Of a stretch of 35,851 nucleotides of DNA, positions 1,108 through 20,806 are shown piece after piece. Made by a program: the position numbers and the translations under genes. Source of the stretch: a virus; the UHGV virus genome UHGV-0135983. The stretch is one strand, 5' to 3'. Within the stretch, counting starts at the first letter, position 1. Each line of letters starts with the position of its first letter. Below the pieces are notes generated by a model. The model was not told where the DNA came from. It made no database searches and worked only from the letters and a program-made list of their open reading frames with translations.

Positions 1108-1153
1108 GCCTTACCCCTCGGGGGTTCACTGTGTAGTGAAGCGAGGGTAAGGC
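1108..1153 (-). promoter_or_regulatory. 18-bp interrupted hairpin (6+6+6 bp) whose 3' arm covers the holin SD and abuts the ATG
   Basis: Pairings are 1108-1113/1148-1153, 1115-1120/1142-1147 and 1125-1130/1135-1140, with loop GTGT. All were checked base by base. Confidence 0.5.
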
Positions 1154-1177
1154 GTTAACCAGGTCGGAATCCTGACT
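1144..1177 (-). promoter_or_regulatory. Late-promoter candidate e (dyad + N12 + TACCCT) upstream of the lysis cassette
   Basis: Minus strand reads AGTCAGGATTCCGACC-N12-TACCCT, ending 37 nt upstream of the holin ATG. Confidence 0.5.
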
Positions 1178-1183
1178 AAATAT

Positions 1184-3304
1184 TTAAGCGTTGAAACCAC
1201 CGACTCGAACTTTTAGCGTAGAGAGGTCAACATTAGCAGTTATGTTTAATACACCACTCCCCGCTGAAATAGAGAATAAGCGCCGTCCGCCTGACGTTCC
1301 GCCCCCCGCCGGTGGAGTGGTATCGAGTTCACCTGTGATCGATATTGAAATGGTACCCTCACGGTTAGCAACGAGTAGCTCTAAACATTCAGCCCAGGTG
1401 AATTGTGCTGACGACCATGCGTCAATAAAAATACGCTGAGTAGTTCGGTTTGGAATTGTGATGGATTTCACTTCCCCTGTATTTACCAGCCCCTGAAAAC
1501 GGGTTCCGTAATCTATCCAGCTGATACTGTACCCTGGCGACCCCGTTGTGGGATTTTGAGATGTATACCAGGTCTGAGTCCGCACTCCTGTATGACTGAT
1601 TGACTGGAGAGGTCGAGCAAACTGATCGCGGTGGATGTATGCATTCGCCCGTATACCATTACTTTGCAGATCTATATCTGCTGTTCGGGGGTTAGGATAT
1701 AAACCAGATCCCCCCACATCAAACATCGCATAATGATTTGCTACGGCGGGTATCCAGCCATTTCTGTCGAGGTTCCTGAAAAAATCTTCAAAGGCAAGCC
1801 AGTACGATTGCTGATGCCCAAACAAATTGGGGTGAACAGTCTGTATTTCCGGCGTCCGATTGAATAATGCCGTTTCGCCATATTTAGCTACAGCATCAAA
1901 CCAGTATTTTTCAACATCAATCAGCACACAGCCCATTTCTACCGCGATTTGCCTGATGGCATCGTTTCCACGCAGGAAGCGAACACCTGCCTGTATGTTT
2001 ACACCATTCCATTCAAACGTGACGTTTGACTCTGCCGCTGAAGGGATAATGTCCTCATCGGAAACAGGAAGTGGAGAAAATGATGGCCACACCTGATTAA
2101 CAGACGGCGGCATGCTCCAGCTGTACTCAGCTATATTTGGATGCGGTGTGGTTGTCAAAACAACATCACCGCCAGCCTCCCTGACTAAATTAATCGCGGC
2201 TCTAAGACGCTGCTTAAATCCATTTTCATTGAACGTTTGCCCGGCATTATAGTTTGCCGTTGGGAAATCATTCATACCATAGACAAAGAGCGCGATATCA
2301 GGATATACACCTTCTGCGACGACGCCAGACCACTGATTTACAATGAAGTTATTTATCGACGAACCATTAGCCCCCCTGTTTTCGAAAGTAAGAGGATAAA
2401 TTCCTTGTTTGTTAAGAGTTTTATTTAAGTATTCGAAAAACTTAGCGATAGGGGCTTGCGTTGCAGGATCTGGAAGTGTTGCACCCACTTGCACTGAACT
2501 ACCGAAACCGTAAGCTCTGAACAAATCCTGATAGCCGGTAACGCCATGCCGATAAGCTGTTAATTTATTAATAAACTTTGGAAACAGAGCCTGTGATGAG
2601 CCAGACGCAGCACGAATAGATGCCTCTACCGTTCTTCCTGTTTCAGTAGCAACTAAGCCAGCACCGTCCTTCGAAGCCAGCTTAATAGCCAGATCTGCAG
2701 TTTGAGTCTGTCCGGCGATCGGTACCGGGTTTCCCTGGTCATTAAATCCCAGAAGCATATTTGAACGCGGAGCCACCGGATAAAGCATGCCTACCTGATT
2801 TTCAGGAACGCGTAACGTACGGGAAAAGTTTACCTGTTCAGTTTGGATAACGTATTTTTTTGTAGCGGCGTCCTGATTATCAACAGGGTCCAGTAAATTG
2901 CTAATTCTGTATCCCTGAGCATTAAACGGCCCACCGGACAGCGGGCGAGTTATTGCCAGTCCGAGTTCGAGGAATGCCCGTTGGATAGCCATCCAGATAC
3001 GGTCAAAGTCCTTATTAATAGTATCCGCCAGTAAGTCCCCGTTATCCTGATAATCCGTTAACCGGAACGTCGGAACAACACGCTGTAACATAACGACAGC
3101 GCCATTCGCCGGCGGCGTCAGAAAGGAGATATCACCACCATCTTTATTTCCAACCCCCGCGACGGAATACCCACTGGTAACAATATTTCCGTTTATGCTT
3201 ACCTGCAGATCGCTGGCACTAATGATATAGAACTGGTACGTAAAAACGGTTGTCAGGCCGTTAGCCGTATAGATGTTATAGGGTATCTGGTTCGGTACCG
3301 ACAT
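1184..3304 (-). CDS. Tail fibre/tailspike: T7 gp17-like N-terminal adaptor plus SGNH/GDSL-type esterase domain
   Basis: The ATG at 3304 follows a GGAG SD. The N-terminus MSVPNQIPYNIYTANGLTTVFTYQF...DNQDAATKKYV is typical of podovirus fibre adaptors. SGNH-like blocks are present: GFGSS, YGMNDF and VHPN. Confidence 0.8.
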   Translation of the reverse strand: MSVPNQIPYNIYTANGLTTVFTYQFYIISASDLQVSINGNIVTSGYSVAGVGNKDGGDISFLTPPANGAVVMLQRVVPTFRLTDYQDNGDLLADTINKDFDRIWMAIQRAFLELGLAITRPLSGGPFNAQGYRISNLLDPVDNQDAATKKYVIQTEQVNFSRTLRVPENQVGMLYPVAPRSNMLLGFNDQGNPVPIAGQTQTADLAIKLASKDGAGLVATETGRTVEASIRAASGSSQALFPKFINKLTAYRHGVTGYQDLFRAYGFGSSVQVGATLPDPATQAPIAKFFEYLNKTLNKQGIYPLTFENRGANGSSINNFIVNQWSGVVAEGVYPDIALFVYGMNDFPTANYNAGQTFNENGFKQRLRAAINLVREAGGDVVLTTTPHPNIAEYSWSMPPSVNQVWPSFSPLPVSDEDIIPSAAESNVTFEWNGVNIQAGVRFLRGNDAIRQIAVEMGCVLIDVEKYWFDAVAKYGETALFNRTPEIQTVHPNLFGHQQSYWLAFEDFFRNLDRNGWIPAVANHYAMFDVGGSGLYPNPRTADIDLQSNGIRANAYIHRDQFARPLQSISHTGVRTQTWYTSQNPTTGSPGYSISWIDYGTRFQGLVNTGEVKSITIPNRTTQRIFIDAWSSAQFTWAECLELLVANREGTISISITGELDTTPPAGGGTSGGRRLFSISAGSGVLNITANVDLSTLKVRVGGFNA

Positions 3305-3321
3305 ATGGGGAACTCCGGCGG

Positions 3322-4932
3322 CTAATAATCTACGGCGACCATGTGATCGCCATCGTTTGGTTGCCAATGTTCCCGCGCCTGTGCGGTCGGAATCCCGACC
3401 AATTTACCTATACGTACCGGAGTTGAGCTGATAGCACCGGAGCCGGAGTCGATAAAGTCATCGGGCTGATTAGTCAGCGCCGGGTTAAAGTCTCGCATCT
3501 GGTCGTACATTGGGCCGTCGAGCACGTCGGTGTGCGCCCAAAGGAACCGCGACGACAGCGGCGCTTCGAAGGCATCGAGGATGCGTTTCTGTTTATTGGT
3601 CACGCTGAATTCTTCCCGGACGCCGCAACCTGTACCCTTCAACGCCTGAATCAGCAATTTGCCGGCGAAGCTGCCCGGGCCGTTCACCTCGACGCAAATC
3701 AGGGGGATCTGATACTTCAACACCAGCTCTTTAATCTGCATCACCTGACCGCCGGTGATTTTGTCGTTGTCGTCAAATTCTGCCAGTTCGCCCGTAAGCC
3801 CCTGGCAAACATGCCAGTACAGATGCCCGCGCGCGTCGGTGAAAATCAGAGAGAACGCCGAGGCGTCGGCCTTAACTTTGCCGGTGGCCACATCCCACCA
3901 GGCGACAGCACCAACAATTTGCGTCTGGCCAAGCCACATCGAACAGGAGCGGTTCGCGTATCGGATTTCAGGCTGAACGTTGTATTCTCGGATACGGTCA
4001 GGATCAAGACGAACCTCGCCAACCGGTTTACTGTGCAGCTGGTACTGACTGTCCCATTCGTTAATTGTGCGAGTCTCGCGGCGGCGCTTTGTCATTTCCT
4101 CCGGAGTGAATCTTTCCGGCCATTCACAATCGGCGTAACAGTCAACCGTGGTACCGGGAGCCTCGGCAAACTCGATACCATCATCGTTAAGACGATAATC
4201 AACACCTTCAACGAGCAGTCGCGCGCCAATGTGAATACCGACGAAAACATATTCAGGCCGGAACGGTAACGAGTAACGGCTAGCGGTAGCCTGTTTTTCC
4301 TCGATGCGAAATTCTTTGCCGAATAGTTTGATGGTCAGACAGTCGGCGCCCATAGATTCAACCTCATCGTAAAGGCTATCGTGGGTATGCGGCGTGCCGA
4401 TAAACAGCTTTCGCCCGCCGGGGACAAGAATGTGTGTCTGTTCACCCAGACGATAACGCAGCTTTTCCCGCGCCTCCGGCGTCTGGATATTCCGGGGCAC
4501 TTCTACGTCATCGTTCTGACATTCATCGGCACGGGCCGAGGTGACGTTAGAGAGGATCCCCTTTGCGTACATGCTGCCGTTACGCATATCCAGCGAGCCG
4601 TTAACCCACCATTGCTCAACGGTTCCCTGTCCGTCGGGTAGCATACCTTTGGTCAGCGGATGATTGCGTAAAACGTTCTGCGTATCGCGGCTGGTTTTGT
4701 ACGCGGTGCCGTCAGCTTCAGACTGGTGAAGAATGCGGTACTGGCGGTTCTGGTAATATCGCCATGCGTTATACACCGCCAGAATGGTGGATTTTCCGAA
4801 GCCACGGAAACAGCGAAGCACCGCGAGATCCCCGCGGTGTTCCAGCCAGTGGCAGGCTCGATAATGGCAGTCGGGAACCTCCCACCCCATCCGCTCCGCC
4901 CATATGATGAAAAAGGCGACGAATGAAATCAT
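3322..4932 (-). CDS. Terminase large subunit
   Basis: Walker A-like motif CFRGFGKST is present. Size and position (after the small subunit, with an ATGA overlap at 4929-4932) fit. The C-terminal half looks nuclease-like. Confidence 0.85.
   Translation of the reverse strand: MISFVAFFIIWAERMGWEVPDCHYRACHWLEHRGDLAVLRCFRGFGKSTILAVYNAWRYYQNRQYRILHQSEADGTAYKTSRDTQNVLRNHPLTKGMLPDGQGTVEQWWVNGSLDMRNGSMYAKGILSNVTSARADECQNDDVEVPRNIQTPEAREKLRYRLGEQTHILVPGGRKLFIGTPHTHDSLYDEVESMGADCLTIKLFGKEFRIEEKQATASRYSLPFRPEYVFVGIHIGARLLVEGVDYRLNDDGIEFAEAPGTTVDCYADCEWPERFTPEEMTKRRRETRTINEWDSQYQLHSKPVGEVRLDPDRIREYNVQPEIRYANRSCSMWLGQTQIVGAVAWWDVATGKVKADASAFSLIFTDARGHLYWHVCQGLTGELAEFDDNDKITGGQVMQIKELVLKYQIPLICVEVNGPGSFAGKLLIQALKGTGCGVREEFSVTNKQKRILDAFEAPLSSRFLWAHTDVLDGPMYDQMRDFNPALTNQPDDFIDSGSGAISSTPVRIGKLVGIPTAQAREHWQPNDGDHMVAVDY
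3367..3400 (-). promoter_or_regulatory. Late-promoter candidate d, inside the terminase 3' coding region, upstream of the tail fibre
   Basis: Minus strand reads GGTCGGGATTCCGACC-N12-GAACAT, ending 63 nt upstream of the fibre ATG. Confidence 0.45.
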
Positions 4933-5270
4933 TTTTTCCGCTGTTGTATGCGTTCGATAACTTCCTGTGCTGCACGTTCAGCGGCAGATACCTGTTGGCC
5001 CAGGCGGAATGCTTCATCGTCCGGATCCTCGCCGGGTTTAGGCGTTCCCCCGCGCGTATGCATGCCAATCAGCGAATGGACTTTTACCAGCAGGGTTAGC
5101 GATGCGGCCGCATTCTTCTTATGCCAGTACCGATCGCCGCGTTCCTGTTTGGTGTGCTTTGTGACTTCCTTCCCTGCCCCCGGCCAGTTATCCGGATCGG
5201 CTTCTTCAAGAACTACATCGGTGAGCTTATCGCTAAGAGCGGTCAGGCGGGTTTTGTAATCTGAATGCAT
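4929..5270 (-). CDS. Putative terminase small subunit
   Basis: This is a 113-aa charged protein translationally coupled to the large terminase. The assignment rests on position only. Confidence 0.5.
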   Translation of the reverse strand: MHSDYKTRLTALSDKLTDVVLEEADPDNWPGAGKEVTKHTKQERGDRYWHKKNAAASLTLLVKVHSLIGMHTRGGTPKPGEDPDDEAFRLGQQVSAAERAAQEVIERIQQRKK

Positions 5271-5299
5271 AAAAAAGCCCCGTGGTTATCCATAGGGCT
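5271..5299 (-). terminator. Intrinsic terminator-like hairpin plus U6 immediately upstream of the small-terminase ATG
   Basis: Minus-strand RNA is AGCCCU (5299-5294), a 12-nt loop, GGGGCU (5281-5276), then UUUUU and AUG. The stem has 5 Watson-Crick pairs plus one G.U pair. Confidence 0.45.
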
Positions 5300-5333
5300 A
5301 TAATGTGCCGGGCTAGAGGTCGGAATCCTGACT
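5300..5333 (-). promoter_or_regulatory. Late-promoter candidate c upstream of the terminase genes
   Basis: Minus strand reads AGTCAGGATTCCGACC-N12-CATTAT, ending 30 nt upstream of the ATG at 5270. Confidence 0.5.
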
Positions 5334-5404
5334 ATTGCATATGCAGCGATGTACGTATAAAACTAGCCGACATTAATATAATCATTTTCATTCAGAGGCT
5401 CCCT

Positions 5405-5842
5405 GTGAAAACTTTATTCCCCTTAATACTGTTTATCGTAACTTCTACCGTTTGCGCCAAAGAAGTTAAATATGACTTTCCTCCAGATGGGGAAATGGCA
5501 AAATCACTCAAACCAGAAATTGTTGGCGTGGCTAATTATGAAATGGTCAATAGAAGCGTGCGCTTAAAAGCTTTAGATGTTGGTGAAAAAAATGTTTCTC
5601 TCCTGGTAGTCATAGGTGCTACCGACACCAGAAAACCCGTTACTCAAGCTAACATCCCTGACAAACAATCAATCTCATTAACTAAACAGCAAATTGTGAA
5701 CAAATATTGTGCACCATTCGGGTATGGCAATTGGTACTTTGATGCCTTCAAACAGCGGGGTGTAAAACTGCACTATTACTTTTACTCGGCAGTAGACACC
5801 CCGTTATTTACATTCACGGTAAATAAATCTGATTGCGATTAA
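5405..5842 (+). CDS. Secreted (periplasmic) moron protein of unknown function
   Basis: GTG at 5405 lies 6 nt after GAGG. The signal peptide is VKTLFPLILFIVTSTVCA|KE, and there are two Cys in the mature part. The gene is AT-rich, opposite in orientation to all neighbours, and its stop overlaps the convergent gene. A possible promoter is TTGCAT (5335) with TATAAA (5356). Confidence 0.6.
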   Translation: MKTLFPLILFIVTSTVCAKEVKYDFPPDGEMAKSLKPEIVGVANYEMVNRSVRLKALDVGEKNVSLLVVIGATDTRKPVTQANIPDKQSISLTKQQIVNKYCAPFGYGNWYFDAFKQRGVKLHYYFYSAVDTPLFTFTVNKSDCD

Positions 5843-8733
5843 CGCATACCGGGATCGACCTGGTTAATCAGCGGCGCAATCCAGAACAGATTATTACCGG
5901 GTAACAGCGTACGCACGTTATGCAGCACACGGTCGCCGGCGTCGCCATTCAGCACGCCGGCGGTTACATCTGTAACGGTATCCAGCAGGCCAAAGGTTGG
6001 CCCCAGAGCAGAACCGATAAAGCCGCGGCTGGCGTAACGGGACTGCGTACCGGTGCCGAGCAATGGCCCTAGCCCTACCATCCCGCCGGATGCCTTTTCA
6101 GCCATGTTGTTATATTCCATCAGTGGACCGAGGATACCAGAACGGTCGATGCCCTCGAGAACCATCTTCTGCGGGGTCAAATCAACTTCCCGGCCATTAG
6201 CCGCCTGCTTAAGCGCATAGGTCAAAGAGCCCAGGCCAATCTGGAAGGCGGTGCCGTAATAGAACTGCGCGGTACCTTCCTGCAGGCCGCCGAGCGTTGC
6301 GCGATTATAGGATGCCGTAGCAAAAGACTTAAACTGGAATACGGTTTTCCCCAGCGGGGTACTAGCCCACAGCGGCGTATCACCGATCCCCGGCGTGATA
6401 ACTGTATTGTTTACGTCTTTCAGTACCGCGGATTGCAGCAAACCGGCGGCGTACTGGTCATCCCATTTTTCGAAATTGCCGATATGCCAACCCTGAATAA
6501 CTTCGCCGTGCTTCTGAAATTCTCGCTGGATGCGTTCGGCCATCTTCTCATTGATGCCGAGTTTTGCCAGGCGCTTCGCAGGGAACGCGCCGGACAGAAT
6601 ACCGTCGGACGTGATCATGCCATTCACCGATTTGTTCATATCGTCAAAGTGGCCCATCATGGTCAACTTGCCGAACACATCGGTAATACGTTCCATGCCA
6701 GCTTCTGCAGCTGTCGTACGTGAAGAGCTATCGACCAGATCCCCCATCGTACGCGCGCGGGTATGCAGTATGGTTTCAAGTCCAACGGCCATTTTCTTCT
6801 GATCCGCCCGGCTGGCGAGGTAAGCCGGCGAGCGGGTAATCAGTGCGCCATATCCACGCATGGTATTGCTGAAGCCGTTAACCATCATGCCGCGCGCCAG
6901 ATCCGGGATAGCGGATACCGTCATGCCACCGAGTTTTGTTACAAAGTTGGCGCTACGCAGGAAAGCACCGGCGCGGACGAAAAATGATGATGGGTCATCC
7001 GGCATACCGTAGGTACCAACGAGGCGATCGCGGAGCGCCAGAATATCGCGCAGGTCGGCTTCGCGCGCCTTCGCCAGCTTTTCCTGTTCTGCCGGGCGTA
7101 AACGCATCAGCGCGTCGTATTCGTCCTGGATGGCGGCGAGCTGCGAATCCAGCGACTTATTGCCAAAGGTGCGGGTTAATTCGATTTCTGCTGAGGCTTC
7201 ACGAATATGACGCTGCAGGACGTAGTTAGCATCGCTCTCCAGATAATCTTTCATCAGGCGATCGGGAACGCTCAACGTACGCGATTTTGTGCTACCCGGC
7301 GCTTTCACCATAAAGACGTTGGCGAACTCCTGCGGAATTTTGGCCCCGACAATACGGTTGATAGTGGTATCTGCGGCAATTTCGGCATCTTCGCGGGACA
7401 TGGTTTTTTCACCGCGTGACCACCAGTCAACCAGCATGTTGCGGAATTTATCGCGCTCGCTAACGATTTTCCCTACCTTGTACACGCGTGGGAAATAGCT
7501 GGTCTGTCCCATCGCTTTCAGTTCGGCATCCGGCGGAAGTAAACCCAGTTCCTGCTGTGCCGTCTTCACACGATTGATGACCGTACGCATTGCCTGTGCC
7601 GCTTCCTGCACTTTCGCATTAACGTGCACGTCACCGTTGCGCAGCGCCTCGCCAACCTGTTCACGGAAGGCCGTATAACCCAGATCGCCGCCTTCGGCTT
7701 TGTACTGGGTGTATGCCTGCTTATTCGCAGTAACGACGGCCGCCTCTTCACGGCGCCAGCCACGTACGCGCGTCTCAGCTGCAACCGGCGTTTCAATACC
7801 GCGCAGGTTGCCTTCCAGCGTGAAGTTATTCTCTGCAAGTTCCAGCGCTGTCCGGCGCGCTTCTTTTGATGGGGATTCCATCAGGCGGGTGATCGGCGTC
7901 AGATAGCTACCGGCTTTTTTAGCCAGCTTGCCTAGTGGGCCGCCAGACACCGGTGTGAGATCATCCAGCGTAGCTTCGCGGATACGCATGGCGCCGACGC
8001 TGCCACCATTCGGTAAAGTATCCGCCAGGGCATCAGCTGCGTTGTTAATCGTTGGCGAGGCGTTCATATTATCGAGCGCCTCCGCCACTTCACGGGTGGC
8101 CGCATTTCTTACCGACGGGGTGATCATCGCGCCAGCAGTGGCAAATACACCGCTGAGAAGTGCGCCGGCAGTAATGTGTGCGGCGCTCTCCCTGGCTGTT
8201 CTGGTGTACTGCTCGTTATTGAGCGCAACCTCGCTAAGTGCGGTACCGGCAGCGCCAATAGCAACCTGAGAACCAATACGCGCAGCCAAGCTTCCCTGCG
8301 CACCAGGAATAAACATCGATGCGACCGTGACAGGGTCGATAATTCCGGCGGCGATACTAGCCAAAGTTCCTTCAGCGCCTGTTTCAGACAGCACCCGGCG
8401 GTCTTCGTTTTCATCGTCTATCTGGTTTTTAATCCAGGCGGTTTCCTCTGGGGATTTTGAATCCGCAAAGGCGGATCCCCATTGTTCGTACCCCTTTAGT
8501 TCGTTTTTATCAGAATAAGGGTTATAACCGTCCGCCGGTTCGAATTGTTTAGCCGGGCGGAACATTCCGGCCAGCAGGTTATTCTGACGAAAAGCGGCAT
8601 CCCATACAGACGGTTGCTGTTGCAGCGGTTCCGGGTTAGTTCCTTTAGGCAGAGATACATCAAAACCAGTTGGCTCCTGAAGAGCATTATCCATTACGCT
8701 TAGCGGTTCGTCAGATTGTGGGTAGAAAGGCAT
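5839..8733 (-). CDS. Large internal virion/ejection protein (T7 gp15/gp16-class)
   Basis: The protein is 964 aa, Ala/Gly-rich, coupled (TAATG) to the preceding SLT protein, and lies last in the internal-protein block. Confidence 0.6.
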   Translation of the reverse strand: MPFYPQSDEPLSVMDNALQEPTGFDVSLPKGTNPEPLQQQPSVWDAAFRQNNLLAGMFRPAKQFEPADGYNPYSDKNELKGYEQWGSAFADSKSPEETAWIKNQIDDENEDRRVLSETGAEGTLASIAAGIIDPVTVASMFIPGAQGSLAARIGSQVAIGAAGTALSEVALNNEQYTRTARESAAHITAGALLSGVFATAGAMITPSVRNAATREVAEALDNMNASPTINNAADALADTLPNGGSVGAMRIREATLDDLTPVSGGPLGKLAKKAGSYLTPITRLMESPSKEARRTALELAENNFTLEGNLRGIETPVAAETRVRGWRREEAAVVTANKQAYTQYKAEGGDLGYTAFREQVGEALRNGDVHVNAKVQEAAQAMRTVINRVKTAQQELGLLPPDAELKAMGQTSYFPRVYKVGKIVSERDKFRNMLVDWWSRGEKTMSREDAEIAADTTINRIVGAKIPQEFANVFMVKAPGSTKSRTLSVPDRLMKDYLESDANYVLQRHIREASAEIELTRTFGNKSLDSQLAAIQDEYDALMRLRPAEQEKLAKAREADLRDILALRDRLVGTYGMPDDPSSFFVRAGAFLRSANFVTKLGGMTVSAIPDLARGMMVNGFSNTMRGYGALITRSPAYLASRADQKKMAVGLETILHTRARTMGDLVDSSSRTTAAEAGMERITDVFGKLTMMGHFDDMNKSVNGMITSDGILSGAFPAKRLAKLGINEKMAERIQREFQKHGEVIQGWHIGNFEKWDDQYAAGLLQSAVLKDVNNTVITPGIGDTPLWASTPLGKTVFQFKSFATASYNRATLGGLQEGTAQFYYGTAFQIGLGSLTYALKQAANGREVDLTPQKMVLEGIDRSGILGPLMEYNNMAEKASGGMVGLGPLLGTGTQSRYASRGFIGSALGPTFGLLDTVTDVTAGVLNGDAGDRVLHNVRTLLPGNNLFWIAPLINQVDPGMR

Positions 8734-11447: not shown

Positions 11448-11452
11448 GTTTA

Positions 11453-11941: not shown

Positions 11942-11943
11942 CG

Positions 11944-14384: not shown

Positions 14385-14385
14385 G

Positions 14386-14949: not shown

Positions 14950-14962
14950 AGCCTTACCTCAG

Positions 14963-14992
14963 ATGAAAAAAGGCCGGGAGATATCCCCCGGC
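14963..14992 (-). terminator. Intrinsic terminator directly after the major capsid gene (T7 Tphi-like position)
   Basis: Minus strand reads GCCGGG, an 8-nt loop, CCCGGC, then CTTTTTTC. Confidence 0.6.
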
Positions 14993-15008
14993 AAAGGCAC
15001 CAGCGGCT

Positions 15009-15920
15009 TTATGCTACGAAATCGATGGCGACTACTTTGTTTTCCGCTGCGCGGCCTGCACCATAGGACGCATCGACGGAAATCTGAATGGTGTTGTTTT
15101 TATCGCGGCGCGGGCCGATATCGACGTTGTACTCTTCGCCGGTACCAAAATGCACAGCAGATTTACACCAGGCTGCGGCGGTTTTGGTGGTTACAGCGGG
15201 ATCACCTGCTGAAGCAGAATCCAGTTTTTCATACGCCAGCCACTTAAAGCCCAGCCAGTTACCAGACACTGCGCCTTCCTGCAGCATTTTCACTGCCATA
15301 AAGTCGGCGCTGGTCAGCGTGGTATCGCTGAGGATTTGGGTCAGCATGTCGGCGTTGTAGGTGATATACAGCTCTTCACCGTTCTGCTCGTCACACTCGT
15401 TACGGCGGAACATGGCTTTCGCGGCGATCAGCTTCGCTTTGGTCATCCCTGTACCGCCAGCAACGATTTTCTGCGATGCAGGCAAGGCAACTGGAGCGTA
15501 CGCGCCAGTATTGGAGGTTTTACGCAGAACGGTATCGAGCAGCGCGCGATAAATAACATCGTCTTTTTTGCGGTTGGATGCGGCCAGCGTCAGCTGCAAA
15601 TATGGCCCCTGCGGGTCAGCCAGCAGTTTGCGCAGGTCGCGCTTTTCCACTGGCACGAATACGCCATAGTCAGCCATCAGCGCATTACGGGTGCCGGCAT
15701 CAGGCAGATCCCAGACGGTATCACCGAAACGCTCGGTGATCTGGGTCATTTCGATGGTACCCATATCGTTGATGGTGAACGACGCACCGGTAATATTGCC
15801 ACGGTCGTAAACAGCAGCTTGCAGGCGGGAATCCTTCTGCTGTGCGGCAATTTCGAAAGAATCATGGAACTGCTGAACAAACGCAGCGGTGATCATGTTC
15901 TTAGCGGTATCAAATGACAT
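15009..15920 (-). CDS. Major capsid protein
   Basis: The ATG at 15920 follows a GGAG SD and gives MSFDTAKNMITAAF... The protein is 303 aa and lies between the scaffold and tail tubular genes. The longer ORF-track start at 16001 was rejected. Confidence 0.8.
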   Translation of the reverse strand: MSFDTAKNMITAAFVQQFHDSFEIAAQQKDSRLQAAVYDRGNITGASFTINDMGTIEMTQITERFGDTVWDLPDAGTRNALMADYGVFVPVEKRDLRKLLADPQGPYLQLTLAASNRKKDDVIYRALLDTVLRKTSNTGAYAPVALPASQKIVAGGTGMTKAKLIAAKAMFRRNECDEQNGEELYITYNADMLTQILSDTTLTSADFMAVKMLQEGAVSGNWLGFKWLAYEKLDSASAGDPAVTTKTAAAWCKSAVHFGTGEEYNVDIGPRRDKNNTIQISVDASYGAGRAAENKVVAIDFVA

Positions 15921-16056
15921 AACAATCACTCCAGAAAGTATCGCCTGCGGGGTATCGGTTTCCCGGCCCAAATCAGCACAATGCGGTTGGCGCTGGCGCA
16001 TTGCGGGAAAATCAGGTATCCGGCGTCCCCGCCGGGCTGGTTGTGGAGTGATTGTT
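15921..16056 (-). promoter_or_regulatory. Long-range 13-bp perfect anti-SD/SD pairing flanking the capsid 5' leader
   Basis: 16056-16044 (AACAAUCACUCCA) is the exact complement of 15933-15921 (UGGAGUGAUUGUU). The latter contains the capsid SD and abuts the AUG. Confidence 0.5.
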
Positions 16057-16084
16057 AGCGAGGAGAGCGGTCGGAATCCCGACC
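16051..16084 (-). promoter_or_regulatory. Late-promoter candidate b upstream of the capsid gene
   Basis: Minus strand reads GGTCGGGATTCCGACC-N12-AACAAT. Confidence 0.5.
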
Positions 16085-16109
16085 AAATGAGCGAAAGTAA
16101 GCCGTGCTG

Positions 16110-16994
16110 TTACCCTCTGGGTTCTTTTATCCTATAACCTGTGCCAGGCATGAATTCATCAATAACTCTTGCCGCGTGACCTATAACTCGAAACGCTGAG
16201 CGTGCTTCTTCATCGGTAATTTTAGTCGCTTTAGTCGGGTCATAATCAGGAGTTTGGTCATCGTCAAAATGTACTCGATAGCCAAATTTTGATATTTCTC
16301 TGAAAATGGAACTAACTGACCTATCAATAGTTGCCATAGTGTCCATTAATCTATTTTTATCCTCCTCAATTTTATTTTTTATTTTCTCATAAGGGCCTAG
16401 CTCATCTACTAAATCTTTAAGAGCATCCGACTTAGAATTTATTTCACCTTCAATTTCATTAAGTTTCCCTTCCGCCAACTCAAGCTTCGAACTTAAAATA
16501 TTAAATTGTTCTTCAGCTTCTTCATATGACTTCTTAATGCTCTCGATATCATGTGTAACTTTAGTAACCTTGAGTTCTTCTTCTGCATTCCTTTTTGCAA
16601 ACAGAGATGTTTGATAAGCTAGTGCGCTATCTGCTTTAGCTGTGTATTCAGCAATGATTTCACGAGCCTCACTCTCAGATTTTGCCCTTTTGATATCGTT
16701 ACCATCAGCGATTTTTTGCGCGCATCTTTGAAAAAAACTCACAGCATGACTAGCATAAGGAAAAAGAACGGCAATAATAAAACCCAAAAGGATAGGAGCA
16801 ACTACAGAATACCAAAAAATACATGGTTCACTTTTCACTTTAATGATTCTATCTTGTAGTTCTCCACTACCCATTAAAACTATCAATAAACTATCCCAGT
16901 TAAACCCCAGCCATGAGAGGACTATGAACCCGAAAAGAGGAGTGTTTATTCTTTGAATTAAAGTTTTCTTTACCGCATCAGCTAATTCGTCCAT
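16110..16994 (-). CDS. AT-rich moron: membrane-anchored coiled-coil protein of unknown function
   Basis: The protein is 294 aa with two predicted TM helices (res ~18-42 and ~57-80). A ~120-aa heptad-like charged region and a C-terminal globular part follow. The gene has its own promoter-like ATGACT-17-TTAAAT and an AAGGG SD. Confidence 0.7.
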   Translation of the reverse strand: MDELADAVKKTLIQRINTPLFGFIVLSWLGFNWDSLLIVLMGSGELQDRIIKVKSEPCIFWYSVVAPILLGFIIAVLFPYASHAVSFFQRCAQKIADGNDIKRAKSESEAREIIAEYTAKADSALAYQTSLFAKRNAEEELKVTKVTHDIESIKKSYEEAEEQFNILSSKLELAEGKLNEIEGEINSKSDALKDLVDELGPYEKIKNKIEEDKNRLMDTMATIDRSVSSIFREISKFGYRVHFDDDQTPDYDPTKATKITDEEARSAFRVIGHAARVIDEFMPGTGYRIKEPRG

Positions 16995-17066
16995 ACGCTT
17001 ACCCTTATGAAGAAACTATCGAAGGATATTTAAGAGTAAAAGGCAAGAAAAGTCATTAACTTTAAA

Positions 17067-17095
17067 TAGAAAAAGCCAGCGAAGTTATACTGGCC
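17067..17095 (-). terminator. Intrinsic terminator after the scaffold gene, upstream of the moron
   Basis: Minus strand reads GCCAG, a 10-nt loop, CTGGC, then TTTTTCTATTT. Confidence 0.55.
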
Positions 17096-17115
17096 TTTGA
17101 TATTACCGTGGCGTG

Positions 17116-17964
17116 TCACACTACGGTTTGCTCGCCGTAACGCTTCTGGTAGTACGCTTTAACCTGTGCAGATACGCGTTCATGGTCGGTATGCTTCGGA
17201 TTCATGTACGCTTCGGACTTCATCAGGTCGCGGATTGATTGCTGCTCTGCCGGGTTGCTGTCTGCGCCCGCTGGCGCGTCTTCCTGCATTTCCGCACCGA
17301 TTTTCGCCAGCATGCGGATCACCATCGGGTTATTGCCGATTTCATCAATGCGGCCGCGATCACCTTCATCGGTCAGGGAATTGAACGCGCGGAAAGCCAG
17401 ACCGATATTCTTGTTAAATTCCGCGTCAGTCTTCCAGACTTCGCGCAGCTGCGTGGTGGCCGCCTCCGAATCCAGCGCCGCGGCGCCGTTGACCAGTTCA
17501 GGCGCAATCTGCGCGTATTCGCTGATAATAAATCCCATCTGATCGTTAGTGATGCCCTTGGCGTGCGCCGACTTCATGAATGATTGCATGCGGGGATCGG
17601 CCTTGAACTCGTCCCAGTTGAAGCCCTCGGCCTTCACCTCAGGTGCATAATCATCTGCCGTTTTCGGCGGCGCGTCGCCGCTGCCCATGCGCTTTTCAAG
17701 GTGCGAGTAAGCATGCGCCAGTTTGCGGGCAGAGCCTTCAATGTCGAGTTTTCCACCTTCGCCCATAACGCGGTATTTTTCAGGTATCCAGTCATTCGCG
17801 CCCGGTTCGCCCGCTCCGGTGCTGAGAAGTGTATTGCCAGCAGAATTATCAGCGCCCTGATTTTCAGTACCACCGCCATTGCCACCATCATTACCCCCTG
17901 TGCTGCCTGCTGGCGCTTCGGCGCCCTGCTCGGCGTTCATGAATAAGTGTTTAATCTTCCACAT
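17116..17964 (-). CDS. Scaffolding protein
   Basis: The protein is 282 aa, acidic and low-complexity (a GGNDGGNGGG tract). It lies between the portal and capsid genes. Confidence 0.65.
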   Translation of the reverse strand: MWKIKHLFMNAEQGAEAPAGSTGGNDGGNGGGTENQGADNSAGNTLLSTGAGEPGANDWIPEKYRVMGEGGKLDIEGSARKLAHAYSHLEKRMGSGDAPPKTADDYAPEVKAEGFNWDEFKADPRMQSFMKSAHAKGITNDQMGFIISEYAQIAPELVNGAAALDSEAATTQLREVWKTDAEFNKNIGLAFRAFNSLTDEGDRGRIDEIGNNPMVIRMLAKIGAEMQEDAPAGADSNPAEQQSIRDLMKSEAYMNPKHTDHERVSAQVKAYYQKRYGEQTVV

Positions 17965-18184
17965 CGTCGTTTACTCCATCTACACGGTTGATTTGCATCA
18001 GAATGAAATCGAGCACGGCACGTTGTCCGGCCCGGTAACAGGTTTCGCGGTCGCCCTCGGCGCCGCCGGGAACGTATGCCGCACGCCCGAATCGGCGCGT
18101 TAAATCATCCAGTACCTGCGTGCCGCCCGGCATTTCCTCGAAAATGCGTTTGTAGTCCGCCGGTGATACTTGTTTAGTAGCCAT
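17951..18184 (-). CDS. Small hypothetical virion-module protein
   Basis: The protein is 77 aa and is coupled to the portal stop (ATG at 18184 overlaps TAA). Confidence 0.5.
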   Translation of the reverse strand: MATKQVSPADYKRIFEEMPGGTQVLDDLTRRFGRAAYVPGGAEGDRETCYRAGQRAVLDFILMQINRVDGVNDDVED

Positions 18185-19806
18185 TAACCCCCCGCTACTC
18201 GTTGGCCCAGTGCTGCGCCTGCCTGCTGCCCTGCGGCGGTTGCCGCTTCGCTACCTGCCTGCATCATTAGCGCTTGCCCTGCCTGTTGCTGCTGCGCCTG
18301 CTGGCGCTGCTGGCGAAGTTGCTCGACGGCATCAGACGAGCGAATGACTTTCGCCGGTACGCCCAGCGCATCCGCTATCACGCGGGTCGCTTCGTCGGTG
18401 TCGATTAGGTCGGTGACTTCTGGTGATACCTGCGCCAGATTGGCCACGTTCGCGCCAAGGCGTTCAATAGCGGTGACGTTTTCCAGCTGCTGCGCGCGGG
18501 CAAGCGGCGAGATATAGCGCACGTTGAAATTGGCGTTTTGCAGGCTATCCGGCGCTGGCGGGAATACACCGGCGCGGAATGCCAGACCGAAACAGCGTTC
18601 TACCAGTGGTTGCAGGTATTCAGCCTGGAATCGGCCATAGACCGGGCCGAGCAGCTGGCGGATCAGCGCGACACGCACATGCACTTCGGTAGCGGTCATT
18701 GCCGGGCCGTCCTGCGGTTGCAGCTGGTCGGCCATCATGATTTTGCGGATCGACGCCTGCAGGCGTTCTTCTGCAGTAAACGCCACGTTGAAATCGGCGC
18801 CGGTGAGCAACGGTTTCATGCTGTCTACGCTGTTCGCCACGATGATGCGGCGCGGGCCGACCTTGACCGTGCGCGGATTGAGTACGCCGTCATCTTCGGC
18901 AATCCACATCCCGGCGATAGCCAGATCCTGCGCGGCTTTCTCCATGCGCTTCGTTTCGTTCAGCTCTTTGCAGTCCGGCAGCGCGTCGTATACCGGGCCG
19001 ATACCGTACGGCGTGCCGGGGATTTTCATCCAGCGCGGTACGCAGCAGGGGAATTCGTGATAGCCGGATTCGCGCACGATGAGCTTGCCGCTCACCTCCA
19101 CGTTGTACGATGCAAAGCGCAGGTTTTTAGCCAGGCGCGCATTCACCACGTAGTTTTCACGCGGGAAAATGCAGTGCAGGAAGTCGAATTTGTCATCCGG
19201 CTTTTTGGCGGCTGCGTCGCGAATCTTCTTGCTGACCTTATCCGCGCCGAATTCTTTAATCGCCTGCTCTGCGGTGAGCTGGTAGCGGCGATAAATCGTG
19301 TCCACGATGCCGTCGCGACGGGTGGAAGTGACAAAGCACTGCGCCAGCGGCCACTGCTGGAACGAGAATCCGCCCTCTTCGCGGTCTTCGTCGATGTACA
19401 GCGCAAACCAGCCAGCACACACCACATCGAGATTCACCTCGTAGCCTTCGGCGTCGAAATTGGCGGCGTGGATGTTTTCCCATACCAGCGTTGCGCAGGT
19501 GGACAACCACGCGGCGGCATCATCCGGCAGCGATTCGCTGTCGAGGTTCAGCCACTGCGCGTTTGCCGGGGTCATGCCGGACATGAGAGCAGACGCCAGC
19601 ATGCGGGCGCTGTCGGTGGCCGTGCCGTCAAGCAGCCGTGCCACCTTCGATTTCGCGCTCTGTGCGTCCAGCACCTCATCGGATAGCCCCGCGCCGCGCA
19701 GCGGATAGGTGTAGTCGTAGCATTCCCGCCAGACACTTTCGTGCACCTGTCGGTTGGCTTTCAGCGTATCGGCACGCTTAACCAGCTTTACGGCGAGTTC
19801 ATCCAT
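18184..19806 (-). CDS. Portal (head-to-tail connector, T7 gp8-class)
   Basis: The N-terminal pattern RQVHESVWRECYDYTYPLRG...DGTATDSARMLASALMSGMTP is typical of podovirus connector proteins. The protein is 540 aa. Confidence 0.85.
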   Translation of the reverse strand: MDELAVKLVKRADTLKANRQVHESVWRECYDYTYPLRGAGLSDEVLDAQSAKSKVARLLDGTATDSARMLASALMSGMTPANAQWLNLDSESLPDDAAAWLSTCATLVWENIHAANFDAEGYEVNLDVVCAGWFALYIDEDREEGGFSFQQWPLAQCFVTSTRRDGIVDTIYRRYQLTAEQAIKEFGADKVSKKIRDAAAKKPDDKFDFLHCIFPRENYVVNARLAKNLRFASYNVEVSGKLIVRESGYHEFPCCVPRWMKIPGTPYGIGPVYDALPDCKELNETKRMEKAAQDLAIAGMWIAEDDGVLNPRTVKVGPRRIIVANSVDSMKPLLTGADFNVAFTAEERLQASIRKIMMADQLQPQDGPAMTATEVHVRVALIRQLLGPVYGRFQAEYLQPLVERCFGLAFRAGVFPPAPDSLQNANFNVRYISPLARAQQLENVTAIERLGANVANLAQVSPEVTDLIDTDEATRVIADALGVPAKVIRSSDAVEQLRQQRQQAQQQQAGQALMMQAGSEAATAAGQQAGAALGQRVAGG

Positions 19807-19809
19807 CGA

Positions 19810-20031
19810 TTATGCCCCTAAGGTGTTTTTTGCTGCCTGGGCGCCAGAGGAAAGCAGGGATGAACCTGTATCCGTCGCGCCTTCTGCGCCGCTGGCCAGC
19901 AGGGATGATCCCTGTTTGCGCTTTTTGCGCGCTGCGGCGTCGGCGTTCGCTGCCTTTGCTGCGGCGTCGGCTGCTGCATCTGCCTCAGCCTGCGGATCCT
20001 GCTGTACAACTTTGGGTGCGCTACCACACAT
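19810..20031 (-). CDS. Small Ala-rich hypothetical protein
   Basis: A strong AAGGAG SD lies 7 nt upstream of the ATG. The protein is 73 aa. Confidence 0.55.
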   Translation of the reverse strand: MCGSAPKVVQQDPQAEADAAADAAAKAANADAAARKKRKQGSSLLASGAEGATDTGSSLLSSGAQAAKNTLGA

Positions 20032-20041
20032 AAAATTCTCC

Positions 20042-20482
20042 TTAGCCCGGAACGTGCCAGCCGTGTTCGGTTAATACGGGTGCGCCGCGTACCGGCTGCG
20101 GCTTGCCCTCTTCGTTCGTCACCATTGCGCCCGTACCGCCGGTGGTAGCCTCAGTGGCTTTACGTACGAGGGTGAGGAATTCGAGATTGTCGGTAAGACT
20201 CTGGTCGTTCAGATCGGTAAAGCCCAGCTCTTCGAAGCGGGCAACGATGGTGGCGCCCTGCGCATTGAGTGTGCCAAGAATGGCGTTGCGCTCGGCCAGT
20301 GCGGTCGCGCCCAGCAACGTCGCAACGTTCTGCTGCACGGTCTGTTCGTCGCTACCGTTACCCTGCTGCTGCGCGCCGTTCTGTTCAGCAGTAATTAATT
20401 GCCCCTCTGTAACGAGCGTTTTTTCTTCCGGCGCCGTTTTTTCCTGCCCCGGCGTCTCAACGATTTTTTTCGGTCGAGCCAT
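20042..20482 (-). CDS. Hypothetical protein, first gene of the virion module
   Basis: The ATG at 20482 lies 9 nt after AGGAG. The ORF-track GTG at 20491 falls inside the SD. Confidence 0.55.
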   Translation of the reverse strand: MARPKKIVETPGQEKTAPEEKTLVTEGQLITAEQNGAQQQGNGSDEQTVQQNVATLLGATALAERNAILGTLNAQGATIVARFEELGFTDLNDQSLTDNLEFLTLVRKATEATTGGTGAMVTNEEGKPQPVRGAPVLTEHGWHVPG

Positions 20483-20509
20483 TTTTTTCACTCCTGAATT
20501 AGTGAGTCG

Positions 20510-20806
20510 TCATTGTGTGTTGCCCTTCTGGTCAGTTTCCCGACCAAAAACAGGGCGGCGGAACGTCCACCACTGCCGATAAAGCACTGTGGGGAGTTTT
20601 TTACGGTCTGAGCTGGTAGCCAGACACCAGAGAGCGATAAGTGCCTCACCGTGACCGTGGCGAGGTTCTGATCCGGATTTCCAACCGAGAACGGCAGATT
20701 TCGAAACGCCAAGTTCATCGGCGATTTGCTGAGTGGTGAGGTTTTTTCGTGTCAGGTCAGTAATGACTCTGAACCAGTCTGTACGGAAGGTGGCGACCAG
20801 CGGCAT
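20510..20806 (-). CDS. Small HTH DNA-binding protein, a candidate late-gene regulator
   Basis: LTTQQIADELGVSKSAVLGW is a sigma-region-4/HTH_23-like helix-turn-helix. This is the last gene before the virion module. Confidence 0.6.
   Translation of the reverse strand: MPLVATFRTDWFRVITDLTRKNLTTQQIADELGVSKSAVLGWKSGSEPRHGHGEALIALWCLATSSDRKKLPTVLYRQWWTFRRPVFGRETDQKGNTQ
20512..20545 (-). promoter_or_regulatory. Late-promoter candidate a
   Basis: Minus strand reads GGTCGGGAAACTGACC-N12-CACAAT. It lies inside the 3' end of the HTH gene, 30 nt upstream of the ATG at 20482. Confidence 0.5.

Follow-up and report, generated by a model that had tools for sequence, protein, structure and literature searches.

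The closest analogues of the regulatory system proposed here are the late activators Lpa of phage P1, C of Mu and Ogr of P2. The 11 late promoters scattered in the P1 genome have a -10 element, no -35 element and an inverted repeat bound by Lpa (PMC10695390, PMC3152322). The inverted repeat that Lpa binds is 9 bp long and has its centre at -22; Mu C covers -30 to -55, and Ogr contacts the alpha subunit from a site at approximately -55 (PMC3152322).

The window analysed here, the whole 35,851-nucleotide stretch of the virus genome UHGV-0135983, carries on its minus strand five copies of RGTCRGGAWWCYGACC-N12-nAnnnT, where shuffled sequences predict 0.36. We consider it likely that these sites are activator-dependent late promoters of a temperate podovirus-type prophage, read by the host sigma-70 holoenzyme, with a phage-encoded 98-aa protein serving as dimeric activator. 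The arrangement resembles that of P1 Lpa, which works with the host SspA, in having many scattered late promoters that possess a -10 and a conserved inverted repeat but lack a -35. It differs in that the dyad is 16 bp long, unrelated in sequence and predicted to be centred near -32.5, and in that neither Pfam nor NCBIfam gave a family match for the 98-aa protein, which matches no characterised family; on this geometry and this lack of a family match, an Lpa-type promoter was rejected. Like Mu C/Mor and P2/186 Ogr/B, the proposed system would pair a small phage activator with a dyad at weak sigma-70 late promoters serving several late units; unlike those proteins, which belong to the Mor/C and zinc-finger Ogr families, the candidate here has an XRE-like predicted fold, and its site replaces the -35. 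The features are as follows.

20510..20806, minus strand: HTH gene that closes the early rightward operon; its 98-aa product is proposed to activate the late genes as a dimer.
20512..20545, minus strand: candidate late promoter a; dyad GGTCGGGAAACTGACC at 20545-20530, N12, CACAAT at 20517-20512; putative targets are the 146/149-aa gene (ATG 20482) and the 73-aa, portal, Bbp19-like and scaffold genes.
17071..17098, minus strand: hairpin resembling an intrinsic terminator, which follows the scaffold gene and ends block a.
16051..16084, minus strand: candidate late promoter b; dyad GGTCGGGATTCCGACC at 16084-16069, N12, AACAAT at 16056-16051; putative target is the capsid gene (ATG about 15920), reached through a structured leader of ~130 nt.
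15921..16050, minus strand: conserved three-hairpin 5' leader of the capsid mRNA, starting right after hexamer b.
14973..14992, minus strand: strong intrinsic-terminator-like hairpin just past the capsid gene (8 pairs, 7 of them G-C, then a T-run).
5300..5333, minus strand: candidate late promoter c; dyad AGTCAGGATTCCGACC at 5333-5318, N12, CATTAT at 5305-5300; putative targets are the 113-aa putative small terminase gene (ATG 5270) and terL.
5271..5299, minus strand: hairpin AGCCCU...GGGGCU plus a U-run abutting the terS ATG; its left arm lies directly after hexamer c.
3367..3400, minus strand: candidate late promoter d; dyad GGTCGGGATTCCGACC at 3400-3385, N12, GAACAT at 3372-3367; putative target is the tailspike/SGNH esterase gene (ATG 3304).
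1144..1177, minus strand: candidate late promoter e; dyad AGTCAGGATTCCGACC at 1177-1162, N12, TACCCT at 1149-1144; putative targets are the holin (ATG 1107), lysozyme and Rz-like genes.
1108..1153, minus strand: hairpin predicted for read-through RNA, with a left arm overlapping hexamer e and a right arm over the holin Shine-Dalgarno sequence.

All five dyads lie on the minus strand at the positions given by the initial annotation, which had also found no other copy of the exact type. A search of the window allowing up to two mismatches returned seven matches, against the 0.36 predicted by shuffling; two of the seven are near-palindromic plus-strand readings of two of the copies, and none is a further site. 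At three mismatches, the sole additional match kept in relatives is 15968-15953. Each dyad is a 16-bp near-palindrome with the core CGGGAWWCCG, in which G7 and A8 are invariant and their symmetric partners vary. The 12-nt spacing is exact for all five hexamers, and the A at position 2 and T at position 6, noticed earlier in these copies, recur in all 198 syntenic copies of relatives. The likely ATG follows the end of the hexamer after ~29 nt (a), 131 nt (b), 29 nt (c), 62 nt (d) and 36 nt (e). Copy a lies within the 3' end of open reading frame 20510-20806, as reported before, with its hexamer overlapping that frame's stop codon, and dyad d sits within terL, at the 3' end of its coding sequence, and is translated there as VGIPT.

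The absence of a -35 was likewise borne out: at spacers of 16-18 nt, the dyad matches TTGACA at no more than two of six positions on direct reading of the sequence. A sigma-70 consensus scan of positions 1-20000 listed nothing at the four sites that it covered (b-e); copy a (20512-20545) lies beyond it, and its missing -35 is read directly from the sequence. No TG of an extended -10 precedes the hexamer in the aligned copies. The initial annotation had further described A/T-rich sequence upstream of every copy; this holds for the three to four bases adjoining the dyad but not beyond, with T at -1 in 39 of 50 non-redundant copies.

Compared across hundreds of related phages, the pattern goes well beyond what chance would give. 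All five positions are likewise occupied in two related genomes, L001 and L002, the second of which has a different early region; site e is retained there even though the genes upstream of it (another tail fibre and an acyltransferase) are different. In loci derived from IMG/VR we found 213 copies, about 199 of them in five syntenic classes and all facing the downstream gene. Every one of the 198 syntenic copies scored (>100 contigs) has nAnnnT, 194 at N12 and four at N11, and this with 24 different hexamers and against a background frequency for nAnnnT of 5.6%. Apart from the dyad, A2 and T6, the flanks carry almost no information. Across 80 loci that include distant relatives, sites combining core and hexamer number 141 on the late-gene strand and 0 on the opposite strand. 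Within each syntenic class, the distance from dyad to start codon is near-constant: from the dyad end to the ATG it is 47-50 nt in class a, in which the order of HTH gene, dyad and p149 gene is kept, mostly 144-151 nt to the capsid ATG in class b (n=59; full range 135-167), 81-85 nt in class d and 54-56 nt in class e. The scan of related phages that the initial annotation had proposed found motif, N12/N11 spacing, orientation and gene-block position all conserved, and on sequence grounds dyad and hexamer together act as expected of a promoter family lacking a -35.

Intrinsic terminators often stand immediately 5' of the dyad. This is so at dyad b in relatives, where the equivalents of the 17071..17098 hairpin are found. 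We did not find a recognisable dyad in some distant homologs, namely Burkholderia phage KL4 and the low-GC loci L350 and L365, and the Piluca/TPWB-05 sister lineage has a non-palindromic 18-mer at the equivalent places. Prophages bearing the circuit were seen in Klebsiella/Raoultella, E. coli, Citrobacter, Serratia, Pectobacterium and Yersinia hosts, and it also occurs on high-GC phage contigs.

The HTH gene immediately precedes copy a in all 80 loci that have that region, high-GC phages included. Homologs of its product, roughly 90-100 aa long, form at least 292 clusters at E <= 1e-10, and that of L002 is 60% identical. The initial annotation had called the protein region-4-like, which did not hold up: Pfam Sigma70_r4 scored 14.7 bits against a cut-off of 24.1, and the best fold matches are of the XRE/Cro-CI type. 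Pfam HTH_3 also remained below threshold, and Phage_CII gave no Pfam match. In the AF2 model (pLDDT 74 overall, 85-90 over residues 11-60), the predicted fold is XRE/lambda-repressor-like; the best Foldseek matches included P22 c2, C.BclI, SinR and HipB, with probability ~1.0 and target-normalised TM of 0.55-0.7, but with E-values of 0.03-0.1. Going by this model, a dimer of the XRE-like domain would suit a 16-bp palindrome.

Protein and site also co-vary. Outer dyad bases change symmetrically in distant homologs, with the same change in all copies of one genome, and base pair 3/14 tracks the residue that precedes the conserved G-W/Y of the recognition helix. Isoleucine, leucine or methionine accompanies T:A (25 distinct helix sequences), glutamine A:T (three), cysteine, aspartate or threonine C:G (three), and arginine or glycine G:C (two); these counts are phylogenetically non-independent and represent perhaps four or five independent changes. 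The observed pairings fit the classical contacts of Gln with A, Arg with G, Asp with C and a hydrophobic residue with the thymine methyl. That the 98-aa protein binds the palindrome is strongly suggested, and the comparisons establish, at the level of sequence, the anatomy, conservation and orientation of the sites and their pairing with the protein. The gene 20510-20806, already named as the obvious source of a factor, is much the best candidate, both always adjoining the first copy and co-varying with the dyad through its recognition helix. Of the earlier reading as a whole, the promoter family without a -35 and the HTH factor as candidate survive, and the region 4 identity falls away.

We propose the following sequence of events. 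At each site a weak -10 (nAnnnT) would be read by region 2 of the host sigma-70, and the 16-bp near-palindrome would stand where the -35 hexamer otherwise lies, bound by a dimer of the 20510-20806 product with its predicted XRE fold. Because the end of the dyad precedes the hexamer by 12 nt, the dyad would span approximately -40 to -25, with its centre near -32.5. The activator would be the final product of an early operon controlled by CI/Cro and would therefore be made during lytic growth only, when it would turn on five separate late units: portal and scaffold; capsid, tail and internal proteins; terminase; tailspike; and lysis. An activating dimer centred near -32.5 is unusual. Since it would fill the place of sigma region 4, activation would need a special geometry, in which the dimer either binds the opposite face, as lambda CII does, or displaces region 4. 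We infer that the protein would contact RNA polymerase in some such manner and that transcripts would start approximately 7 nt downstream of each hexamer.

Several known regulators resemble parts of this scheme. Lambda CII, an HTH protein of ~97 aa, activates PRE, PI and PaQ, which have a poor -35, from binding sequences that straddle the -35 region; unlike the present candidate, it is a tetramer on the direct repeats TTGC-N6-TTGC and serves lysogeny genes, whereas here a palindrome precedes late lytic genes. T4 middle promoters also combine a good -10 with a phage-specific element near -30 in place of the -35. The MotA box is asymmetric, however, and is read by a monomer after AsiA remodels sigma region 4, whereas the element here is a dyad; the MotA/AsiA class of sigma appropriation does not match, given this palindromic character and the lack of a MotA or AsiA match among the open reading frames scanned (the small ones in part). 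Restriction-modification controller (C) proteins and the lambda and P22 repressors at PRM are XRE-fold dimers whose palindromic operators adjoin or overlap the -35, and they are able to activate by way of sigma region 4. The model's best structural matches include C.BclI, C.Kpn2I, C.AhdI and P22 c2. Those proteins autoregulate a single operon, whereas here we propose a regulon of five promoters with the site in the -35 position itself.

Some of the candidate promoters are followed by structured RNA. The capsid leader has 23 predicted pairs, with compensatory changes in 10 of them across 19 relatives, and its third hairpin holds the degenerate dyad-like site GGCCGGGAAACCGATA (15968-15953), followed by N12 and TACTTT; Rfam returned no family match for this leader or for the dyad hairpin. 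Pairing potential at 1108..1153 is conserved in relatives, and the hairpin (-24.3 kcal/mol, z = -3.4; -7.8 kcal/mol for the truncated RNA) would lose its left arm in RNA begun approximately 7 nt past hexamer e. Similarly, the 5271..5299 hairpin, kept in class c copies, has -16.6 kcal/mol as against -2.8 kcal/mol for RNA initiated at c, and appears terminator-like in read-through RNA and missing from RNA begun at promoter c.

The dyads could be operators, the HTH protein being a repressor or timing brake on late promoters that are otherwise active or driven by another factor; the PHROG label of the protein's family, a generic 'transcriptional repressor', the prevalence of repressors among XRE-fold proteins and the overlap of the dyad with the would-be -35 position all point that way. 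Sites with neither a -35 nor an extended -10 should, however, be inactive alone, and intrinsically active ones would give holin in the lysogen, where the early operon is repressed and the protein absent. The scans yielded no other conserved regulator, and the gene, in the last early slot immediately ahead of the late genes, is placed as the genes of known late activators are in lambda (Q), P1 (Lpa) and Mu (C). We regard repression as unlikely, and the protein probably activates the late genes. It might instead bind the dyad and act after initiation, by Q-like loading at a -10-like pause or by allowing transcription from the early promoter through the terminators between blocks. Lambda Q recognises a QBE between the -35 and -10 of one constitutive promoter, followed by a pause element and a downstream terminator; a DNA site with a -10-like hexamer resembles QBE plus pause element, and terminator-like hairpins do occur between blocks and right after hexamer c. 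But there are five sites rather than one, neither a -35/-10 around or before the dyad nor the upstream sequence is conserved, terminators are usually found on the upstream and not the downstream side of the dyad, and the scans contained no Q-family domain. A lambda Q-type antitermination site was rejected for the lack of a Q domain, the five sites and the lack of a conserved -35/-10 around the dyad, and post-initiation action in general seems to us quite improbable.

The genomic distribution, with one conserved motif before each late gene block, recalls T7 class III promoters, and the sites might serve an unrecognised phage RNA polymerase or sigma-like factor, with the HTH protein a bystander or cofactor. 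Several large virion proteins have no family match, late proteins of 964, 683, 146 and 73 aa lack an assignment, and the non-palindromic 18-mer of the sister lineage would also be in keeping with such an enzyme. The likeness to T7 is one of genome position only, however: T7 uses asymmetric 23-mers and a single-subunit RNA polymerase, whereas here a dyad accompanies a sigma-70-type -10. As the initial annotation had held, we found no phage RNA polymerase; Pfam and NCBIfam scans of most open reading frames gave zero RNA polymerase, sigma factor or Q-like genes, and no large open reading frame contains an RNA polymerase domain. A single-subunit polymerase promoter was rejected on this and on the make-up of the motif. 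A2 and T6 never vary, which is the hallmark of -10 recognition of the sigma-70 type, the dyad is symmetrical and co-varies with the HTH recognition helix, and the unassigned proteins are late or virion products, which would therefore need to transcribe their own genes; we hold this explanation to be very improbable. Least probable of all, and barely credible, is that the dyad acts as a nucleic-acid hairpin, whether in RNA, affecting processing or stability, or as an extruded N4-type DNA hairpin promoter. A 6-bp stem with a 4-nt loop can form, and positions 3/14 and 2/15 co-vary with complementarity kept, but symmetric co-variation is equally expected of a dimeric protein. On the sense strand, the variants AGTCAG..CCGACC and GGTCAG..CCGACC produce two and one A.C mismatches, GGTCGG..CTGACC produces one on the antisense strand, and the YeP5 variant CCGAAC breaks the stem on both. 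The asymmetric invariance of G7/A8, the lack of a U-run after the stem, the location of the dyad upstream of the predicted start and the absence of an encoded virion RNA polymerase argue in the same direction; both hairpin forms were rejected on the frequent variants that put A.C mismatches on either strand and the lack of an Rfam match.

Returning to the reading as activator-dependent promoters, it might be extended, tentatively and with more doubt than belief. XRE-fold relatives of the 20510-20806 product, ~90-100 aa long, could constitute an unrecognised, widespread class of late activators. Their dimer, placed in the -35 position (~ -32.5), would take over the contact made by sigma region 4 or push it aside, with no need of appropriation factors like those of T4, and one recognition-helix residue would set the specificity for the outer base pair. 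Holin and terminase transcripts would start inside the left arm of the leader hairpin. Read-through RNA would then be silenced, either by termination or by having its ribosome-binding site sequestered, and only activator-initiated transcripts would be spared.

We found no paper describing this family of late promoters built on the dyad and the 98-aa protein. The proposed system would supply a concrete regulatory circuit (a small activator, a 16-bp site and five late operons) for a large, unstudied group of temperate podovirus-like prophages. Its motif lets annotators mark late operon boundaries and the slots in which cargo (moron) genes insert, and synthetic biology could draw on the co-variation between residue and base for ready-made orthogonal pairs of activator and promoter. 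A dimeric activator in the -35 position, if true, would be an unusual means of recruiting the sigma-70 holoenzyme and worth structural study.

A degenerate search with RGTCRGGAWWCYGACC returned exactly five matches in the window, all on the minus strand and at the positions of the five dyads proposed in the initial annotation; 0.36 matches at up to two mismatches would be expected by chance (shuffled sequence). Direct reading of the sequence placed a hexamer exactly 12 nt past every dyad, bearing out the fixed spacing that had been claimed.

Dyads (minus strand), hexamers and the gene blocks behind them
20545-20530, minus: site a, CACAAT; p149 (146/149-aa) gene, portal, scaffold
16084-16069, minus: site b, AACAAT; capsid
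5333-5318, minus: site c, CATTAT; terS/terL
3400-3385, minus: site d, GAACAT; tailspike
1177-1162, minus: site e, TACCCT; holin

The absence of a -35 consensus was also confirmed: with 16-18 nt spacers, at most two of the six TTGACA positions can be matched within the fixed dyad, and a sigma-70 consensus scan of positions 1-20000 reported nothing at the four sites within its range. If the hexamer occupies -12 to -7, the dyad covers -40 to -25.

The window represents an approximately 35-kb prophage whose CI/Cro switch lies near 29.0-29.7 kb and whose right end carries an integrase. Its early rightward operon encodes RepO, DnaB, two methyltransferases, and NinB-like and Ref-like proteins. The late podovirus region follows on the same strand; it begins with portal, Bbp19-like, scaffold, capsid, tail tube and GNAT genes, and continues with internal virion proteins carrying an SLT domain, terS-like and TerL proteins, a tailspike (T7-fibre N-terminus plus SGNH esterase domain), and holin/lysozyme/Rz-like lysis genes. 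Domain scans of most of the window's ORFs revealed neither an RNA polymerase nor a sigma factor or Q-like antiterminator, in agreement with the earlier statement that no phage RNA polymerase is encoded.

22687-23520 and 23700-24290, minus: DNA adenine methyltransferase genes of the early operon, one of the D12 class and one MT-A70

A 24-kb megablast query of the phage collection returned nothing beyond short unrelated pieces. By capsid protein, the nearest isolates were the Yersinia phages YeP4 and YeP5, which are induced prophages (84%), followed at greater distance by Alcaligenes phage Piluca and HTVC010P-type pelagiphages; close protein homologs were found in Klebsiella, Raoultella, Citrobacter, Serratia, and Pectobacterium. 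BPP-1, suspected from the Bbp19-like gene, proved to lack the dyad, as did Piluca and vB_EcoM_APEC. Burkholderia phage KL4 has no dyad either, although it encodes a protein distantly related to the HTH protein (the 98-aa product of 20510-20806).

We compared the window with two related E. coli prophages, L001 (89% identity) and L002 (~80% over the late genes). Both carry the dyad in the same five places, within intergenic DNA that has diverged or been replaced, and the early region of L002 is entirely different from that of the window. The exact 16-mer was present in at least 120 IMG/VR stretches, whose loci held 213 dyad copies. About 199 of these were assignable to five syntenic classes, in which every copy faces its downstream gene; the remaining ~14 lay on unrelated contigs, a number near the chance prediction. 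Among the exact matches listed from genome_contigs, nearly all were single and in unrelated taxa, and about 280 chance matches were estimated for these 596 Gb. Motif, spacing, orientation, and position, the features proposed earlier for a check in related prophages, are kept in all five classes.

Syntenic classes of the dyad, with distance from dyad end to start codon
Class a: HTH gene to p149 gene; 47-50 nt
Class b: scaffold gene to capsid gene; mostly 144-151 nt (range 135-167)
Class c: 964-aa gene to terS/terL; about 46 nt
Class d: 3' end of terL to tailspike gene; 81-85 nt
Class e: upstream gene to holin gene; 54-56 nt

In a profile of 50 non-redundant copies, information was confined to the dyad, the T just before it, and hexamer positions A2 and T6. 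The pattern nAnnnT (background frequency 5.6%) followed 198/198 syntenic copies, at a spacing of 12 nt in 194 and 11 nt in 4, and was realized by 24 different hexamers. A-11 and T-7 are the two -10 bases that are flipped out and read by sigma-70 region 2. Because selection falls on exactly A2 and T6, the alignments constitute strong evidence that the hexamer is a -10 element. The YeP5 comparison covers four dyads; both termini of the deposited record (34969/1) fall within the 3' end of terL, at the expected position of promoter d, and ~80 nt present in relatives at this junction seem to be missing.

Copy a lies, as first described, inside the 3' end of the last early gene, which encodes the HTH protein. 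HTH homologs precede copy a in every relative for which that region is available, including high-GC contigs (the L002 homolog is 60% identical over 72 aa), and the dyad was located between the HTH and p149 genes in 80/80 IMG/VR loci recovered with the protein, five of which have extra genes inserted between the two. Some homologs stop before the dyad, and others translate it in differing frames: the window's HTH protein reads it as FGRETDQ (GRETD) in its tail (20530-20545), and VGIPT results both at the TerL C-terminus (3385-3400) and in the tail segments of certain HTH homologs (P0047, P0050). Since frames differ and some homologs end earlier, the conserved entity, judged from these sequences, is the dyad DNA rather than the encoded peptide, the coding sequence having been built around a DNA signal.

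An AlphaFold model of the HTH protein consists of a helical HTH domain (pLDDT 85-90 over residues 11-60), whose best structural matches were P22 c2, the controller proteins C.BclI and C.Kpn2I, SinR, and HipB. The description of this protein as "region-4-like" was not supported, because its Sigma70_r4 match fell far below threshold. No Pfam, NCBIfam, or PDB family claims it, and a PDB sequence search gave no significant match; a profile search recovered 292 clusters at E <= 1e-10.

Evidence connecting the HTH protein with the dyad came from 80 distant loci (GC 37-70%) whose HTH homologs are 30-45% identical. Most have a dyad immediately 3' of the HTH gene, with nAnnnT 12 or 11 nt beyond it, and a second copy 3.5-5 kb downstream; sites with core plus hexamer numbered 141 on the late strand and 0 on the opposite strand. 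Among these sites the core CGGGAWWCCG is invariant, while the outer bases differ between lineages in a symmetric manner (GTC..GAC, GAC..GTC, GCC..GGC, GGC..GCC, TTC..GAA), each change being common to the copies within one genome. The helix 3 residue just before a conserved G-W/Y (L40 in the window; helix 36-44 in the model) tracks base pair 3/14 of the dyad.

Recognition-helix residue and dyad base pair, with distinct helix sequences (counts are not phylogenetically independent)
I/L/M: T:A at 3/14; 25
Q: A:T at 3/14; 3
C/D/T: C:G at 3/14; 3
R/G: G:C at 3/14; 2
H: T:A at 2/15; 3

The pairings agree with the classical contacts of Gln with adenine, Arg with guanine, Asp with cytosine, and hydrophobic side chains with the thymine methyl. 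In YeP5, the helix VAKATLFGW replaces VSKSAVLGW, and three of the four dyads are altered to ..GGGAAACCGAAC.

Symmetric co-variation of the dyad arms is compatible with a stem, and taken alone would also fit a nucleic-acid hairpin rather than a duplex protein site. However, the frequent variants AGTCAG..CCGACC, GGTCAG..CCGACC, and GGTCGG..CTGACC produce A.C stem mismatches on one strand or the other, with CCGAAC in YeP5 neither strand retains an intact stem, and G7 and A8 are invariant whereas their symmetric partners vary; nor is there a U-run behind the stem or an Rfam family for the dyad. Because several independent switches go in the expected direction, the most economical explanation of the sequence data is that a symmetric dimer of the HTH protein reads the dyad directly. 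Its proposal as the candidate factor, unlike its likening to region 4, is sustained by both adjacency and helix-dyad co-variation.

The segments following sites b, c, and e contain predicted RNA structures.

15921-16050, minus: capsid leader, about 130 nt, three hairpins, starting directly after hexamer b
5271-5299, minus: hairpin and U-run between hexamer c and the terS ATG, abutting the ATG
1108-1153, minus: site e read-through hairpin (RNA folding, -24.3 kcal/mol, z = -3.4)

The capsid leader is kept in enterobacterial and even in high-GC relatives, and 10 of its 23 predicted pairs show compensatory changes; GGAYAMC stands at the end of both hairpin 1 and hairpin 3, and Rfam has no family for the leader. 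A conserved leader directly after hexamer b fits a transcript starting at b. A degenerate "sixth copy" of the dyad at 15968-15953, considered as a tandem promoter, was identified by the alignment as hairpin 3 of this leader instead. As it retains the CGGGAAACCG core and a hexamer at 12 nt, this site could have a dual role and additionally be bound weakly by the HTH protein.

In the 1108-1153 hairpin, the left arm overlaps hexamer e and the right arm covers the holin Shine-Dalgarno sequence. The long holin-leader hairpin was missing from the RNAalifold prediction; pair counting on the named structure gave 84% paired, with covariation that was not significant. The 5271-5299 hairpin looks like a terminator for read-through RNA. 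RNAs begun ~7 nt past hexamers c or e would lack the left arms of these hairpins; the arrangement suggests that only promoter-initiated transcripts may be productive at the two sites. Since transcripts initiated at promoter e would not contain the left arm, holin may go untranslated from RNA that reads through from the tailspike gene. The hairpin/U-run/ATG arrangement of the terS leader was found again in Piluca and in Acinetobacter phage TPWB-05.

In many relatives, an intrinsic terminator closing the preceding block lies immediately 5' of dyad b or e. The window itself has two terminator-like hairpins, the second of which probably attenuates transcription towards the tail genes.

17098-17071, minus: terminator-like hairpin after the scaffold gene
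14992-14973, minus: strong terminator-like hairpin just 3' of the capsid gene, 7 G-C pairs and a T-run

Between the post-scaffold terminator and promoter b is a 294-aa ORF (16110-16994, minus; GC 39%) with weak coiled-coil-like matches only, which looks like a moron or cargo insertion because L001 and L002 have no gene there. A variable slot (5334-5838) adjoins promoter c upstream, occupied in the window by a 186-aa plus-strand ORF without family match (5282-5842), in L001 by a different plus-strand gene, and in YeP5 by two opposite-strand genes; in L002 it is empty. Cargo genes seem to collect immediately 5' of the dyads.

In a sister lineage, the starts of the same late gene blocks are marked by CACCCAACAAAC(C)CCAAC, a motif that is not palindromic and is followed in at least two cases by 11 nt and AACACT. 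The HTH homolog of that lineage is only about 40% identical, and its recognition helix is different.

Piluca: 7-24, 19459-19476, 24200-24217, sister motif
TPWB-05: about 25754, 20860, 11950, 8440, 3480, sister motif

Neither the motif (in either orientation) nor the HTH protein family was found in the searchable literature, and papers mentioning YeP4/YeP5 or APSE do not discuss promoters. Among known systems, the -35 region is where lambda CII and T4 MotA operate. Each of the 11 late promoters of P1 combines a -10 with a 9-bp inverted repeat bound by Lpa and centred at -22 (PMC10695390, PMC3152322), while Mu C binds -30 to -55 and P2 Ogr binds at about -55 (PMC3152322). The P1 late promoters are the closest analogue of the window's system, and the regulatory logic is common; however, this system differs from P1, Mu C, P2 Ogr, lambda CII, and T4 MotA in the family of its protein and in the sequence and position of its site, and when tested against each of these families it did not qualify.

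A promoter with neither a -35 nor an extended -10 would be expected to be silent in the lysogen, and the late sites would need such silence, the holin gene lying directly behind site e. The sites being expected to be silent, and the scans having revealed no conserved lytic regulator other than the HTH protein, we infer that it would act as the late activator; a role as repressor is less consistent with the data. By analogy, a dimer placed at -35 could either occupy the opposite DNA face from sigma region 4, like lambda CII, or displace region 4, as in T4 appropriation.
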